Positions 2,183-27,973 of a stretch of DNA of 64,000 nucleotides are shown here, one piece after another (position 1 is the stretch's first letter; every line of letters starts with the position of its first letter). The DNA comes from Enterobacteria phage ATK47. Location: the sequence record NC_055708.1. One strand, 5' to 3'. Below the pieces are notes generated by a model. It made no database searches. It was given only the letters and a program-made list of their open reading frames with translations, and was not told where the DNA came from. The position numbers and the translations under genes were made by a program.

Positions 2183-4396
2183 ATGATTATTGAAACGGCT
2201 AAAGAAACGATTATTGGTTCAGGCGGTAAGAGCACAGCATTCACTATTCAAGGCAATAGCAAAGTTTATAAGATTTTGTCTAATGACCTTTATACAAACA
2301 AAGAATTGGCTTGTGTACGTGAATTAATCACAAACTGTATTGATGGACAAATTCTTAATGGTTGCACTGATAAGTTTATTGTTCAGGCTCCAGGTCGTTT
2401 AGACCCACGTTTTGTAGTTCGAGACTTTGGTCCTGGTATGAGTGATTTCACCATTAGAGGTAATGACGAAGAGCCGGGAATCTATAACTCATATTTTGCT
2501 TCAACTAAAACATCGAGTAACGATTTCATTGGTGGATTCGGACTCGGCTCTAAAGCTCCGCTAGCATATACCGATACATTTAACCTTACGTCTTATCACA
2601 ACGGTGAAGTTCGTGGTTACGTAATCTACCAAGATGACACAGGTCCACAAATTAAGCCGACCTTTGTAGATAAGATGGGTCCTGATGACCGTACGGGTGT
2701 AGAAGTAGTCGTACCGGTTAACCCGGAAGATTTTGAAAAGTTCGCATCCGAAATTGCATATGTTATGCGTCCTCTAGGTGATATTGCAGAAGTTCGTGGT
2801 GTTAAAGATATTAAATACTTCCCTGAATTTGACGATGTATATTTGGCCAAGGAAGCTCCATGGGGTGAACGCGGTAATATCATGGCTGTTTACGGTGGTA
2901 TTGTATATCCAATCGGAAGTGTTATTAAAGAACAAACATGGATGATGACTCGATGCACCACAGCTTATATTAAATTCCCTATGGGTGAACTAGACGTAGC
3001 TCCGTCTCGTGAAGCATTGTCATTTGATAAACGTACAGTAGCAAATATCCATAAACGCGTTGCAGAAATCGATGCTAAATTGTTCGCTGAAGATTCTAAG
3101 AAATGGATTGATTGTAAATACCCACGTCATGTGTTCCGTGAAATTGATTCTCTTGGTTATACCGCTCGTAAATACATGGAAAAGGCCGGGTCTAATATTG
3201 AATCACTGAAATACTCTAAAGAACAACTAACTTATTCTGAGTTGTACAAACGTTTTAAAATGGGGCCCGGATGGTGTAATCTTGGCGTTGTATACGATAT
3301 CGTTGAATCCCCTCGTCTTCGTCGTATTCGTGAAAGTGGTAGCTCATCGGCAACTATTTCAATTAACAGTCTGATTGGCATTAACATTAAAAACGTTGAA
3401 ATTGTTATTGACGACGTTAAGGGACGCGTTCCATTAATGCGAGCTCTTAATTCAATTGAAATGTCTAAAGACGAGGTTAAATTAACTGGTAAAGTTCCAC
3501 GCGGTTTTGGTAAAAGCGTACTATTCGTTGACCCTACAGACGAAGATGCAATGAAACTTCTGGAACGCCTTAAAGTTATCTTTGATGGCGACAACATTAA
3601 CATGTACAAGACTTCAGAGCTTTTACAAATCGTTAAGCCATGGATTGAAGTCAGGAAACGAACTAATGAGCCTCGTCCTAAATCGCCAAGTGCTCATCGA
3701 TTCTTTAAGAATGAAAACGATGTTTGGGTATCAGAAGACCTCTTTATTCCGGCAAGTGAAGCAGATGAAATCCAAGGTTATGCTATAGTTCGTAATCGTT
3801 CTAATGCTGAATGTCTTGACGCAGATAAAGGTTGGTTGAACTATGACTCCAATTTCTTGACCCGTATTGCTGATTTGTCAGGTATTAAAGAGTTCACTGT
3901 AGTTCGTCCACAGATTGCTAAGAAAGTTCGTAAACTTGGTGAAGTAGAATGCTTGTTCGAAAAATCTATTAACGACTATATTACGCTAATCGATAAAGTG
4001 GATTATGATGAGTATGTATCACCAAGTCGTAGAGCACAACCTTATTTGAATCATATTACTCGTAATGAAGAGCTTAACTTCCTTAGTAAGTATTTTAGCT
4101 CTAAAAACAAAGAAATCAGTAAAGATTTTGCAAAACTCTCAACAGTAAATAATCGTTGGGGATGGAATCGATTCTCAGGTGCTACTAACAGAGAACTGAA
4201 TAAAAAGTTAGAATTGTGTGCTAAAATTTTCGATAAGCTTAAAGATAATGCTTACGATAATGATGATAAAATGGTTATTGAATTCGAAACCAATTATCAT
4301 ATTGTGTCAGACTACATGGGACGACGTGGTACTCTTTCTAAAGAACAAGTCGCTCAAATCGTTAAATTCATGAAGGCCGTGGAAGCGGCCAAATAA
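2183..4396 (+). CDS. rIIA: rIIA protein (GHKL-type ATPase-like N-terminus)
   Basis: 737 aa; N-terminal ...NKELACVRELITNCIDG... and GGFGLGSK glycine motifs typical of GHKL ATPase fold; size and position (after gene 39, before rIIB) as in T4. Confidence 0.85.
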   Translation: MIIETAKETIIGSGGKSTAFTIQGNSKVYKILSNDLYTNKELACVRELITNCIDGQILNGCTDKFIVQAPGRLDPRFVVRDFGPGMSDFTIRGNDEEPGIYNSYFASTKTSSNDFIGGFGLGSKAPLAYTDTFNLTSYHNGEVRGYVIYQDDTGPQIKPTFVDKMGPDDRTGVEVVVPVNPEDFEKFASEIAYVMRPLGDIAEVRGVKDIKYFPEFDDVYLAKEAPWGERGNIMAVYGGIVYPIGSVIKEQTWMMTRCTTAYIKFPMGELDVAPSREALSFDKRTVANIHKRVAEIDAKLFAEDSKKWIDCKYPRHVFREIDSLGYTARKYMEKAGSNIESLKYSKEQLTYSELYKRFKMGPGWCNLGVVYDIVESPRLRRIRESGSSSATISINSLIGINIKNVEIVIDDVKGRVPLMRALNSIEMSKDEVKLTGKVPRGFGKSVLFVDPTDEDAMKLLERLKVIFDGDNINMYKTSELLQIVKPWIEVRKRTNEPRPKSPSAHRFFKNENDVWVSEDLFIPASEADEIQGYAIVRNRSNAECLDADKGWLNYDSNFLTRIADLSGIKEFTVVRPQIAKKVRKLGEVECLFEKSINDYITLIDKVDYDEYVSPSRRAQPYLNHITRNEELNFLSKYFSSKNKEISKDFAKLSTVNNRWGWNRFSGATNRELNKKLELCAKIFDKLKDNAYDNDDKMVIEFETNYHIVSDYMGRRGTLSKEQVAQIVKFMKAVEAAK

Positions 4397-6187: not shown

Positions 6188-6224
6188 GTTTACAACTAAG
6201 TAGGACTATGATATAGTAGTCCTA
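6188..6224 (+). promoter_or_regulatory. T4-type early promoter (GTTTAC -35, TATAGT -10) with inverted repeat taggacta/tagtccta bracketing the -10
   Basis: GTTTAC 6188-6193, 18-nt spacer, TATAGT 6212-6217; arms 6201-6208 and 6217-6224 are exact reverse complements. Confidence 0.55.
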
Positions 6225-9269: not shown

Positions 9270-9298
9270 GTTTACACGTGCTTCAAACGTGATATTAT
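9270..9298 (+). promoter_or_regulatory. T4-type early promoter
   Basis: GTTTAC 9270-9275, 17-nt spacer, TATTAT 9293-9298, followed by conserved atagacctatcaaaacaaa box. Confidence 0.55.
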
Positions 9299-9337
9299 AG
9301 ACCTATCAAAACAAAACAACCAAATTGGAGAAATAAA

Positions 9338-9553
9338 ATGTCTAAAATGAAATTAACCCAAAACACAACTACTCGTTTCGGTAAAGTTAAACCTGGTATG
9401 AATGCTCCCCGTAAAGCACTTGTTGAAGAATTAAATTTCTTAGAAGTTGAAATCAATTCTTTAGTGGTTCGCGGTTCAAATGGACGTCATTTAGAAAAGC
9501 TTCGTTCTAAAAAGGCAAAACTTATTGGCCTTATTAAAGAAATGAGTTTGTAA
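9338..9553 (+). CDS. Hypothetical protein
   Basis: 71-aa ORF with ggag RBS between two early promoters. Confidence 0.5.
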   Translation: MSKMKLTQNTTTRFGKVKPGMNAPRKALVEELNFLEVEINSLVVRGSNGRHLEKLRSKKAKLIGLIKEMSL

Positions 9554-9590: not shown

Positions 9591-9619
9591 GTTTACTTTT
9601 GCTTCAAACATGATATTAT
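9591..9619 (+). promoter_or_regulatory. T4-type early promoter
   Basis: GTTTAC 9591-9596, TATTAT 9614-9619, same downstream box as promoter at 9270. Confidence 0.55.
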
Positions 9620-9656
9620 AGACCTATCAAAACAAATACTAATTTGGAGAAATAAA

Positions 9657-10289
9657 ATGTCTAAAGTTACTTACATCATCAAAGCTTCTGAAAACGCTCT
9701 GAATGAAAAAACTGCTGCAATAATGGTTTATATCATTAAGAACAACTTCACCACTGCTGCCAATGTCCGTGAAGCTCTGGAATCGGAATACAATGCATCG
9801 GTTGTTAACTCTAACATTGGTGTATTGATTAAGAAAGGTTTAGTCGAAAAATCTGGCGATGGGCTTGTGGCAACAGGCGAAGCAATGGATATTATCCAAA
9901 AAGCTGCAGACCTATTTGCCCAAGAAAATGCTCCAGAACTTCTTCAGAAACGTAACACTAGAAAAGCACGTGGAGTTACTCCTGAAATGCATGAATTAGC
10001 AAACTTTGTTTTTGAAAATATTAAAGATAAAGTTGAAGTTAAAGAAATTGGTGAAAACCGTAGTAACTTAGAAGTTCGATTTGCAAAACGAGTTCTAGGC
10101 ATTCGCCAAATTGAAATTCGTCGAGATGGCGCTCTTAGAATCTTTGCATACAACATGTCAGAAACTGAATCAAAGCTGTTTACTTCTCTTGAAAATGATG
10201 TTAAGATTAAGATCGGTGGTAAATATACTTACATTGACTTCCCTAATGTGTCTAAAGAAATCATTACCCTTGTAACTAACGTACTGTGA
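9657..10289 (+). CDS. motA: Middle transcription activator MotA
   Basis: 210 aa (T4 MotA approx 211 aa); position downstream of gene 52 as in T4. Confidence 0.6.
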   Translation: MSKVTYIIKASENALNEKTAAIMVYIIKNNFTTAANVREALESEYNASVVNSNIGVLIKKGLVEKSGDGLVATGEAMDIIQKAADLFAQENAPELLQKRNTRKARGVTPEMHELANFVFENIKDKVEVKEIGENRSNLEVRFAKRVLGIRQIEIRRDGALRIFAYNMSETESKLFTSLENDVKIKIGGKYTYIDFPNVSKEIITLVTNVL

Positions 10290-25036: not shown

Positions 25037-25936
25037 ATGTTTAAACGTAAATCTACTGCTGACCTCGCTGCTCAAATGGCTAAACTGAATGGTAACAAAG
25101 GTTTCTCTTCAGAAGATAAAGGCGAATGGAAGCTGAAGCTAGATGCATCAGGTAATGGTCAAGCGGTAATTCGTTTCTTGCCAGCAAAAACTGATGATGC
25201 ACTACCATTTGCAATTCTTGTTAACCACGGTTTCAAGAAAAATGGTAAATGGTATATTGAAAATTGCTCTTCTACACACGGTGATTATGACTCTTGTCCT
25301 GTATGTCAGTACATTATTAAAAATGACCTGTACAATACCAACAAAACTGAATATTCTCAACTGAAACGTAAAACTTCTTATTGGGCTAATATTCTGGTTG
25401 TTAAAGACCCTCAAGCTCCAGATAACGAAGGTAAAGTATTTAAATATCGTTTCGGTAAAAAGATTTGGGACAAAATCAATGCAATGATTGCTGTTGATAC
25501 CGAAATGGGTGAAACTCCAGTTGATGTTACTTGTCCGTTTGAAGGTGCTAACTTCGTTCTGAAAGCTAAGCAGGTTTCCGGTTTTAGCAACTATGACGAA
25601 TCTAAATTCTTGGGTCAATCTGAAATTCCTCGTATTAATGACGAAGCATTCCAGAAAGAACTATATGACCAGATGGTAGACCTTACTACTTTGACGGCTA
25701 AAGACCAGTTCAAATCCTTTGAAAAATTAAATGAATCTTTCGCTAAGGTTCTTGGTACTGCCGCTCTGGGTGGTGCAGCAGCTGCCGCAGCTTCTGTTGC
25801 AGATAAAGTTGCTTCTGACCTCGACGATTTTGATAAAGACATGGAAGCCTTTAGTTCTGCAAAAACTGAAGATGACTTCATGAGTTCCTCGTCTTCTGAC
25901 GATGGCGACCTCGATGACCTGTTAGCTGGCCTATAA
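25037..25936 (+). CDS. 32: ssDNA-binding protein gp32
   Basis: 299 aa; zinc site C-x-H...C-x2-C ([14 protein letters not shown]); acidic C-terminus [16 protein letters not shown]. Confidence 0.9.
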
Positions 25937-25942
25937 TAAATT

Positions 25943-25964
25943 GGGAGACTTCGGTCTCCCTTTT
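25943..25964 (+). terminator. Intrinsic terminator gggagacTTCGgtctccc + TTTT
   Basis: Perfect 7-bp stem, UUCG loop, T-run. Confidence 0.7.
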
Positions 25965-25991: not shown

Positions 25992-26020
25992 GTTTACTTC
26001 TTCCCTGGATGTGTTAGTAT
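25992..26020 (+). promoter_or_regulatory. T4-type early promoter
   Basis: GTTTAC 25992-25997, TAGTAT 26015-26020, downstream atagacctatcaaaacaaa box then ATGAGGAAAT RBS. Confidence 0.55.
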
Positions 26021-26050
26021 AGACCTATCAAAACAAATGAGGAAATCATA

Positions 26051-26413
26051 ATGGAAATCGGAAAATCTTATATCATTAACCCTGCATTTAAAGCTACCTT
26101 CGCTAACGAATGCCCACAAAATGCTGAAATGCTGTCTTTGATTGAGCTTCATGGCCCTAGTTTTGTTGTAAAAGACATGAACACAGAGTACGACGATGAT
26201 AAATGTGTAACACGTGTAACTATGCGAGACGGCACTGAATTGGGTTTTGACGGTAAGCCGGGTTCATATTTTGAGCTTTATGACGATGAGTTCAAATACT
26301 TCATCGAGGTATCCCCAGAGTCTATTTCTAAACAGTCACTCATCTTTGAAGTCACTGAAGATAACGCCCGTGATGTGATTGCAGAAATTAAAGAAATTTT
26401 TGGAATAAAATAA
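26051..26413 (+). CDS. Hypothetical protein, paralog A of tandem pair
   Basis: 120 aa; shares MEIGKSYIINP...LIELHGPSFVV...DEFKYF with the downstream ORF. Confidence 0.55.
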   Translation: MEIGKSYIINPAFKATFANECPQNAEMLSLIELHGPSFVVKDMNTEYDDDKCVTRVTMRDGTELGFDGKPGSYFELYDDEFKYFIEVSPESISKQSLIFEVTEDNARDVIAEIKEIFGIK

Positions 26414-26438
26414 GTACAGCACAAATGAGGAAATCAAA

Positions 26439-26831
26439 ATGGAAATCGGAAAATCTTATATCATTAACCCTTTATTTAAAGATGACTTTGTTCAAGAAGC
26501 ACCACACAATAATGCTAAGATGTTAAAATTGATTGAACTCCACGGGCCTAGTTTTGTTGTAAACGGAATGGAACCTGATTATGATAGCGATACGTCAAAC
26601 GTAGTAAGTGTAACTATGGAAGATGGTACGGTATGTTCTGCCGGTGGTGAAATTGAAACTTATTTTGAGATTTATCCTGACGAGTTCAAATACTTTACTG
26701 AGGTAGATTTAGTAAAGCCTCAACCTACTAACGAAGGTATAACTTTAGGTGTAACAAAAATCCATTGTATCGTAGATGAAACCAACGTCGACGAAATCAT
26801 CAAACTTTTGCAAAAAACTTTTAAAAAGTAG
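26439..26831 (+). CDS. Hypothetical protein, paralog B of tandem pair
   Basis: 130 aa; 5' approx 50 nt including the RBS nearly identical to paralog A. Confidence 0.55.
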   Translation: MEIGKSYIINPLFKDDFVQEAPHNNAKMLKLIELHGPSFVVNGMEPDYDSDTSNVVSVTMEDGTVCSAGGEIETYFEIYPDEFKYFTEVDLVKPQPTNEGITLGVTKIHCIVDETNVDEIIKLLQKTFKK

Positions 26832-26862
26832 TTTATAACAAGATAGGGCTATGTTATAGTAG
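26831..26862 (+). promoter_or_regulatory. Early-type promoter with near-palindrome around -10
   Basis: GTTTAT 26831-26836, TATAGT 26855-26860, flanking tagggcta/tagtccta. Confidence 0.5.
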
Positions 26863-26894
26863 TCCTATCAAATAAAAGTGAAGAGGAGAATAAA

Positions 26895-27137
26895 ATGAGA
26901 TTGCAACGTCAGAGCATCAAAGATTCAGAAGTTAGAGGTAAATGGTACTTCAACATCGTTGGTAAAGATGCTGAACTCCTTGAACAAGCTGAAGAAGCTT
27001 TACGTGAAATGGGTTGGAACGAAGAATGTGATGGATGTCCACTCTACGAAGATGGTATATCATCCGGATTCTGGATTTATCACTCGGATGTCGACCAATT
27101 TAAAGCTGATTGGAAAATTGTGAAAAAGTCTGTTTGA
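26895..27137 (+). CDS. Hypothetical protein
   Basis: 80-aa ORF with ggag RBS. Confidence 0.5.
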   Translation: MRLQRQSIKDSEVRGKWYFNIVGKDAELLEQAEEALREMGWNEECDGCPLYEDGISSGFWIYHSDVDQFKADWKIVKKSV

Positions 27138-27146
27138 GGAAATACA

Positions 27147-27398
27147 ATGAAAACACTAAATTTACTTAAGGTTGGGGAAGACATAGATATTGCTGATATC
27201 TACAAAAATCTAACTTATTATGATAATTTATTTGTCGTTCAAACCTTAAATGGCGATTATTACACGGTTTCTTTAGTGCGAAATAAATTTAAAAACAAAT
27301 TTTACTTTTGTATTTATAATTATCATGGCCAACGCTCTAGCAATTATATTGAACCGTCTGACATATTTTATATTGAGGAATTAAAATGCTTAAATTAG
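27147..27398 (+). CDS. Hypothetical protein
   Basis: 83-aa ORF, RBS gagga. Confidence 0.45.
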   Translation: MKTLNLLKVGEDIDIADIYKNLTYYDNLFVVQTLNGDYYTVSLVRNKFKNKFYFCIYNYHGQRSSNYIEPSDIFYIEELKCLN

Positions 27399-27973
27399 TA
27401 TTCGCATGCGCACCATCTAAAACAGTTGATGATAAACTGGAATATGCTTTTGGATTAGGTGATGGACTTCCATGGAAGCATATCAAACAAGATATGAGTA
27501 ACTTTGTTGCTCGCACTAAAAACACTGTAATGGTTATGGGTGCTAAGACTTTTGCATCATTACCTCGTCTACTCCCAGATCGTACTCATGTAGTTGTCAC
27601 CGATATGTCTAGAAAACTGCCTAGGACTAAAAGCGACGAACTTGCACGGTTCTATATCACCCAAGCAGAATTTATTACCCTGGTGACTGGTAGTGAAATT
27701 AACTTGTTCGGCCCTTCAACAGACGTACCATTTAAACTTTCTACTGAACATGTTGATGTATCTGTTATCGGTGGCCCGGCTCTATTAAAACAAGCACTGC
27801 CTTATGCTGATGAAATTGTGATGACTAAAATCATTAAGAAATGTCGTGTTAATTCAGACGTTCAACTTGATAAAGATTTCATCCAAGATATTATGCTTCA
27901 ACGTTCTATGGTAGAATCTCATTACTACAGAATCGATGAACTCACCGAAATTACTGAGAGCGTATATAAATGA
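27386..27973 (+). CDS. frd: Dihydrofolate reductase
   Basis: 195 aa; immediately upstream of td with ATGA overlap; GLGDGLPW region consistent with DHFR. Confidence 0.75.
   Translation: MLKLVFACAPSKTVDDKLEYAFGLGDGLPWKHIKQDMSNFVARTKNTVMVMGAKTFASLPRLLPDRTHVVVTDMSRKLPRTKSDELARFYITQAEFITLVTGSEINLFGPSTDVPFKLSTEHVDVSVIGGPALLKQALPYADEIVMTKIIKKCRVNSDVQLDKDFIQDIMLQRSMVESHYYRIDELTEITESVYK

Follow-up and report, generated by a model that had tools for sequence, protein, structure and literature searches.

Two anciently diverged FRD2-family genes side by side in an RB69-like phage, with a short gene-conversion patch at their common 5' end

The two adjacent small genes that follow gene 32 in Enterobacteria phage ATK48, here called A and B, represent two lineages of the FRD2 (T4 Frd.2) family that separated long ago and now lie side by side, and the near-identity of their 5' ends is a secondary homogenisation. 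The window, i.e. the whole stretch of 64,000 nucleotides that was analyzed, matches at 100% the record KT184310 of this phage (Straboviridae, Mosigvirus, RB69 group). A (26051-26413, 120 aa) and B (26439-26831, 130 aa) lie exactly where a first-pass annotation had placed them and have the lengths given there. That annotation had described them as diverged tandem paralogs with a common leader, which is confirmed, and had attributed them to a recent local duplication followed by divergence, which the data presented below contradict. An explanation that combines an ancient paralog pair, a shared cassette leader, a conversion patch, and shuffling is, taken as a whole, likely correct.

On the plus strand, the locus reads gene 32, terminator, promoter candidate, A, spacer, B, cassette, frd.1/DUF5417, an 83-aa ORF, frd, and td. 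Gene 32 (gp32 ORF, 25037-25936) ends with an intrinsic terminator hairpin (25943-25960), recovered by the terminator scan with a fold of -13.4 kcal/mol (z -2.8) and annotated in KT184310. Next come a T4-type early promoter candidate read from the sequence (25992-26020: GTTTAC, a 17-nt spacer, and TAGTAT) and A, an FRD2-family member of the A lineage by its Pfam and PHROG matches, with a type II C-terminal module (...FEVTEDNARDVIAEIKEIFGIK). A spacer of 25 nt (26414-26438) holds the SD of B, which is the canonical Mosigvirus Frd.2 with a type I C-terminal module (GVTKIHCIVDETNVDEIIKLLQKTFKK). The 3' side of B is occupied by a PeSL-like cassette identified in the promoter scan (26832-26872), made of an early promoter (TTTATA, a 17-nt spacer, and TATAGT) and then the frd.1 leader, with a hairpin of 10-11 bp spanning the -10 box (26842-26869; -16 kcal/mol, z -4.2). 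The frd.1/DUF5417 ORF (26895-27137) and frd (27386-27973) complete the arrangement. The A/B pair is placed between gene 32 and frd.1/frd, the position expected of FRD2 genes, in an order also found in T4 and JS10. GenBank record KT184310 annotates B as 'frd.2' and gives the intact copy A no CDS feature.

The 83-aa ORF (phrog_4308, 27147-27398) that separates frd.1 from frd is shared by ATK48 and p000y, and phage 55, LH01, FP43, and PECP20 have other small ORFs, or none, in its place. This site is another swap point of the same variable region, of which the A/B pair is itself an ordinary and well-explained feature in a T4-like genome.

The similarity between A and B extends beyond their leader. 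Pairwise alignment, a check that the first-pass annotation had proposed, gives 62% identity over residues 1-89 (BLASTP, E=4e-34), and at the nucleotide level the aligned genes show 124 mismatches in 354 nt (65% identity). Both proteins match Pfam FRD2 (PF03197, a model of 96 positions with a gathering threshold of 29 bits) over nearly its full length, A with 78.5 bits at model positions 1-95 and B with 121.3 bits at positions 1-96, and both match phrog_622. Homology thus reaches well past the leader, and the restriction to leader and first codons that would have spoken against the first-pass annotation is not observed. The blocks LIELHGPSFVV and DEFKYF, which had been singled out as shared by the two genes, are present, but these motifs are conserved throughout the family, which is a small one (41 clusters at 50% identity among 1.84 billion representatives).

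The divergence of the two copies is old. Outside the first 12 codons, the comparison of A with B by the Nei-Gojobori method gives pS = 0.665, a dS of about 1.6 (saturated), and dN = 0.40, and the first 12 codons show zero synonymous differences. The same saturated values are found within the A/B pairs of phage 55, ESh15, LH01, and FP43. Each copy has orthologs of its own: A-type genes at ≥80% aa identity occur in 20 of 50,697 phage records, and B-type genes at ≥90% aa identity in 122 phage records, B being 98.5% identical in aa sequence to RB69 frd.2 and 100% to that of phage moskry. The N-terminal domain of A is 86-98% identical to that of the A genes of other phages and only 60% to that of its neighbour B. 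Consistently, A-type and B-type sequences form separate groups in identity tables and in neighbour-joining trees, which were built on short domains (about 35 aa for the C-terminal module) and carry no support values. These data show that B is the resident Mosigvirus allele and A a rare second lineage, and synonymous saturation together with the existence of orthologs for each copy leads us to reject a recent duplication.

A orthologs compared with the A gene of ATK48 have a dN/dS of about 0.1, indicating purifying selection, and A is therefore a real, constrained gene. The dN/dS comparison suggested by the first-pass annotation for the two paralogs reveals synonymous saturation, and for this reason their own estimates are unreliable. 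Host-interaction selection, invoked by the first-pass annotation, is a conjecture. Positive selection was considered and rejected: pN/pS is below 1 in every segment, with a maximum between the paralogs of 0.68 in the acidic-loop segment, and the saturated dS makes the measure uninformative.

Comparison of copy number across related phages, also proposed at the outset, shows B alone in most Mosigvirus genomes, A+B pairs in some, and an A-type gene alone in L011, a T4-like contig from a metagenome with just 75% backbone identity, where this gene (68% to A) is the sole frd.2 between gp32 and frd.1. The order A-B is found in three records (ATK48, phage 55, and ESh15), and the order B-A in 17 (FP43, LH01, 13 LF82 phages, phiEC1, and Mizar), as well as in one IMG/VR contig detected with an A-specific 3' probe; the B-A phages have a full promoter/hairpin cassette ahead of each gene. 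A second contig, L012, has a single copy in which an A-like N-terminal domain is fused to the canonical C-terminal module. ATK48 itself is a mosaic, being 98.2% identical from B through td to the single-B phage p000y, with A closest to phage 55. No other A 5' end of the ATK48/phage 55 type was found in IMG/VR and the JGI metagenomes. Gene order and copy number fit recombination that stacks and shuffles diverged alleles, not a recent duplication in place. The tandem state would probably result from unequal or cassette recombination at the conserved leaders, i.e. the PeSL mechanism (Arbiol et al. 2010). An ancestral duplication, then differential loss and rearrangement, is an alternative origin of the tandem state.

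The nearly identical 5' ends of about 50 nt reported by the first-pass annotation correspond to 51 nt (26033-26083 against 26421-26471), 50 of which are identical, the single mismatch being at 26049/26437. Each copy of this block comprises a leader (ACAAATGAGGAAATCAtAATG in the copy ahead of A), with an SD GAGG (26039-26042 ahead of A, 26427-26430 ahead of B), and codons 1-11 of the gene. Only 1 in 100,000 permutations of the mismatch positions reached the 33-nt identical 5' run of A and B (p about 1e-5); the tract of identity exceeds chance and is bounded by diverged sequence, as expected of gene conversion. It is also lacking in the ortholog of a close relative. The A genes of ATK48 and phage 55 have only six differences, at nt 8, 16, 18, 21, 27, and 303, and the five located in nt 8-27 all match B (binomial P=5.5e-5), the remaining 333 nt holding a single one. 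In ESh15, LH01, and FP43 the native A gene begins ATG AAA ATT GGA AAA ACG/ACT TAC/TAT ATC ATC AAT CCA GAA and differs there from B at synonymous sites; the 5' end of phage 55 A is intermediate, and in ATK48 alone A has the exact B sequence, through codon 11.

These comparisons show that the 51-nt near-identity has two layers, an early-gene cassette leader and a short gene-conversion patch that overwrote codons 3-9 of A (at most 1-11) with B sequence. The converted tract measures at least 20 nt (26058-26077) and at most 34 nt (26050-26083), the A/B mismatches at 26049 and 26084 marking its bounds. ATK48 and phage 55 also have B-like codons 10-11 and 13 in common, which suggests an earlier patch too. 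Parsimony across the five A alleles gives the direction of conversion, a back-conversion of phage 55 by a native A gene being an alternative. The patch itself may equally have come from B in the same genome or from the B allele of a co-infecting phage.

A recent tandem duplication in place, with fast divergence of everything except the leader, would agree with the adjacency and same orientation of the genes, with their 50/51 identical leader and 5' end, and with a family that is prone to tandem multiplication (Dhakavirus 2a/2b, three copies in phage W70, and fused double-domain proteins; see below). It is, however, very unlikely given that synonymous sites are saturated past the first 12 codons, that A is so much closer to A genes of other phages than to its neighbour (86-98% against 60% in the N-terminal domain), that 17 records have the opposite gene order, that an A-type gene is the only copy in a phage of just 75% backbone identity, and that phage 55 has the same arrangement with a non-identical 5' end. 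Even less credible is an assembly or annotation artefact, such as the misassembly of two allelic variants from a mixed phage stock. The absence of A from the GenBank annotation and of any further ATK48-type A 5' end from IMG/VR and the JGI metagenomes could be read in its favour, but the independently sequenced phages 55 and ESh15 have A-B with co-linear flanks, the identical block of 51 nt is shorter than a sequencing read and hence no repeat on which an assembly would fail, and both ORFs are intact.

Selection at the nucleotide level on the initiation region, on a repressor operator, or on mRNA structure might also have kept the leader and first codons alike for co-regulation or equal amounts, conversion being only the means. 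Among four B alleles, pS is indeed 0.00 in codons 1-13, that is zero synonymous differences, against 0.5-0.84 further in and 0.16 in the C-terminal part; moreover, the leader motif recurs before other early genes, and one pair of cassettes elsewhere in the window, at 9270 and 9591, is identical into the first three codons. However, native A alleles use other synonymous codons in this region and are under purifying selection, so that there is no family-wide constraint, and with only about seven synonymous sites the zero differences weigh little and are equally expected of a recombination anchor. A structured RNA or known RNA family in the leader was likewise considered and discarded, folding giving an unstructured region and Rfam no match. 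Low pS at both ends of the B alleles is what would be expected of conserved recombination anchors flanking a variable core, for which selection on the initiation region is the weaker alternative, and we regard this rival as improbable.

A more far-reaching reading would have the leader and first ~11 codons, and the C-terminal module with the promoter/hairpin, act as recombination anchors, the Frd.2 barrel being swappable or stackable. One type II and one type I copy would then be kept as a complementary, possibly heteromeric, early module, with a variable acidic loop tracking a variable host target and identical initiation regions equalising translation. As a whole, this reading seems improbable to us, and we retain the ancient pair with a cassette leader, a conversion patch, and shuffling.

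PeSL cassettes and modular shuffling are described in T4-type phages, with a crossover site between the -10 box and the ATG (Arbiol et al. 2010, PMC2839356; Comeau et al. 2014, PMC4122927); the portions of the T4-type literature consulted contain no description of this architecture for RB69-like phages. The locus resembles these systems in that an early promoter, a hairpin, and a conserved leader are repeated at many intergenic sites of the variable regions. The window contains four copies of the leader ACAAATGAGGAAATCAAAATG at ≤3 mismatches (0.01 expected) and five of the promoter-hairpin motif TATAGTAGTCCTATCAAA (0.08 expected), the latter in the post-B cassette and at 6212, 6724, 9293, and 9614. 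Early ORFs of the window are preceded by about 15 GTTTAC-N17-TAnnAT sites whose leaders are similar, and in ESh15 the leader also precedes an unrelated small ORF. Such dispersed repetition at intergenic sites is a defining feature of PeSL. A further likeness is that neighbouring small ORFs differ between close relatives, and that alternative gene orders and mosaic identity breaks fall at promoter/leader sites, i.e. at the published crossover site. The locus differs from these systems in the A-B spacer of ATK48, which has no cassette, and in the conversion patch, which reaches into coding sequence.

The individual elements conform to this architecture to different degrees. The post-B promoter (26832-26860, TTTATA-N17-TATAGT) fits the T4-group early form TTTACW-N17-TAYWAT and has a stable stem-loop (26842-26869). 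The A promoter candidate (25993-26020, TTTACT-N17-TAGTAT) has one mismatch in the -10 box, where relatives have TACTAT, and scores below the sigma-70 scan threshold; its position is kept in all relatives. It has no stable stem-loop (z +1.0) and follows the gene 32 terminator instead. The A-B spacer (26414-26438) gave no promoter or terminator match in the scans and is unstructured (-0.3 kcal/mol); comparison with the intergenic cassettes of LH01 and FP43 suggests that it may be the remnant of a promoter/stem-loop cassette deleted internally. By its consensus and by comparison with the T4 gene order, the early promoter candidate (25992-26020) would transcribe an A-B bicistron in which each cistron has its own GAGG SD.

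Elsewhere in the window, promoter candidates of the form GTTTAC-N17-TAnnAT are found on the plus strand at 6188, 6700, 9270, 9591, 22698, 34279, 35685, 37811, 41394, 41838, and 48740, and in many of these dispersed candidates a hairpin spans the -10 box and the leader is of a similar ..TCAAAACAAATGAGGAAA.. kind. The cassettes at 9270-9345 and 9591-9665, 321 nt apart, are nearly identical and extend through codon 3 (ATG TCT AAA) of two unrelated ORFs, one of 71 aa (9338-9553) and one of 210 aa (9657-10289). They represent a second case of identity reaching from a leader into a coding start.

A and B are both strongly acidic proteins of about 14 kDa with a pI of 4.4 and a net charge of -12. Structure prediction, which the first-pass annotation had recommended, returned one common topology for the two (AlphaFold2, pLDDT 86.8 for A and 84.3 for B): a small barrel of about residues 1-88, in which a strand and two helices precede four further strands, is followed by a linker of low confidence and then by a helix at the C-terminus. 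In the model of A the predicted strands span residues 6-9, 37-44, 52-58, 63-65, and 84-87, with equivalents in B, and would form the bent five-stranded antiparallel sheet expected of this fold. For each protein the prediction is thus a beta-barrel of the SH3/FeoA-like (LSm-like) type at the N-terminus, connected by a disordered linker to a strand-helix at the C-terminus, and the models predict that the two differ most in the C-terminal module and in the acidic loop. Sequence search recovered no solved structure, and NCBIfam and PADLOC (defence/anti-defence) gave no match. A net charge of -12 would argue against simple RNA binding and for a protein partner. At best guess, and as the least supported step of the proposed mechanism, A and B might be early host-takeover adaptors for a protein partner, with different partners or partner variants.

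The published fold hypothesis for T4 Frd.2 is RNA-related and does not concern protein binding (PMC12152347). T4 Frd.2 was reported with the same predicted barrel fold and was grouped with GoF and MotB.1 among early proteins with an 'LSm-like fold', and a T4 frd.2 amber mutant plated normally (Kim et al. 2025, PMC12152347). In CRISPRi-ART, frd.2 was the one T4 fitness gene of unknown function (PMC11879866). A and B match this family end to end and share with T4 Frd.2 the locus, a similar size and acidity, and the same predicted barrel and helix. However, T4 has a single copy, the N-terminal identity is 32-36%, and the C-terminal module of A is a shorter, divergent type II and not GVTKIHCIVDENNVDEIIELLRKTFKK. 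GoF and MotB.1, the published structural relatives of the Frd.2 N-terminal domain, are likewise early, non-essential, and small; an RNA-stability phenotype is a point of difference, being found in the GoF mutant only.

The closest parallel is found in Dhakavirus, where frd.2a and frd.2b (JS98/JS10, IME281, dhaeg) also form an adjacent FRD2 pair directly after gene 32. The short first gene ends in a C-terminus of the ...TFGI type and the second in the canonical ...KTFK, giving type II then type I, as in A-B of ATK48. However, the N-terminal domains are 35-44% identical to those of A and B, only 4 nt separate the two genes, and their 5' ends showed no identical block. Moreover, Mosigvirus A and B are sisters in trees of the N-terminal domain and not orthologs of 2a and 2b, which implies that the Mosigvirus and Dhakavirus pairs are independent or that domains were reshuffled.

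The FRD2 family, its locus and predicted fold, the tandem frd.2a/2b genes (annotated in JS10), and PeSL shuffling are already described, and Frd.2 is conserved across T4-like phages. Specific to the present locus are the Mosigvirus A lineage (unannotated in ATK48), the occurrence of both gene orders, and the short patch of conversion. To the known picture it adds this A lineage, two C-terminal module types paired in the tandem-bearing Mosigvirus and Dhakavirus phages examined, and, for an RB69-like phage, a clean and small case of gene conversion over a short tract and of shuffling mediated by leaders. Its main value lies in correcting the reading as a recent duplication and in providing natural A/B variants for studies of Frd.2 function; it is no new kind of system.

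The type I C-terminal module (GVTKIHCIVDENNVDEIIELLRKTFKK) is nearly invariant in T4, Dhakavirus 2b, and Mosigvirus B, the N-terminal domains of these proteins being only 30-40% identical. The type II module (..FEVxxxNAxxVIAEIKxxFG) is found in A, in the family member P0003, in Dhakavirus 2a, and in phage W70. Similar N-terminal domains are associated with either module type (P0027 compared with A, and P0026 with P0041), from which we infer that the modules recombine. All Mosigvirus and Dhakavirus tandem pairs examined have one type II and one type I copy.

Escherichia phage W70 (Vequintavirinae), which lies outside the Straboviridae, has three tandem FRD2-family paralogs (contig L017, 655-1875), one of them 44% identical end to end to A, and the family is therefore not confined to Tevenvirinae. 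One copy of each C-terminal type was considered as a general rule for tandem arrangements and rejected, the three W70 copies being all type II. In two other members, P0073 (225 aa) and P0076 (240 aa), two FRD2 N-terminal barrels are fused before a single C-terminal helix, in the manner of fused tandem duplicates.

B is itself variable in length among Mosigvirus. The common form of Frd.2 is 134 aa and carries a 12-nt tandem duplication (TACTTTATTGAG TACTTTACTGAG) that gives ..FKYFIEYFTEV..; it is seen in phage 55 (L005, 1704-2108) and p000y (L002, 1517-1921), and is absent from ATK48, RB69, and PECP20. The corresponding 4-aa YFIE insertion was considered as a footprint of A-to-B conversion and rejected, being a tandem duplication of B's own sequence.

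Finally, some phages have a tiny hydrophobic ORF with its own promoter/hairpin cassette in front, which is absent from ATK48. It lies between frd.2 and frd.1 in contigs L011 (about 2746-2814) and L012 (about 2966-3034), where it reads MFAPYIMAAVMLVCLYLLIKAC, and ESh15 (L006) has from about 2161 a tiny hydrophobic ORF that begins MLAPYIMAVV, the part that was read.
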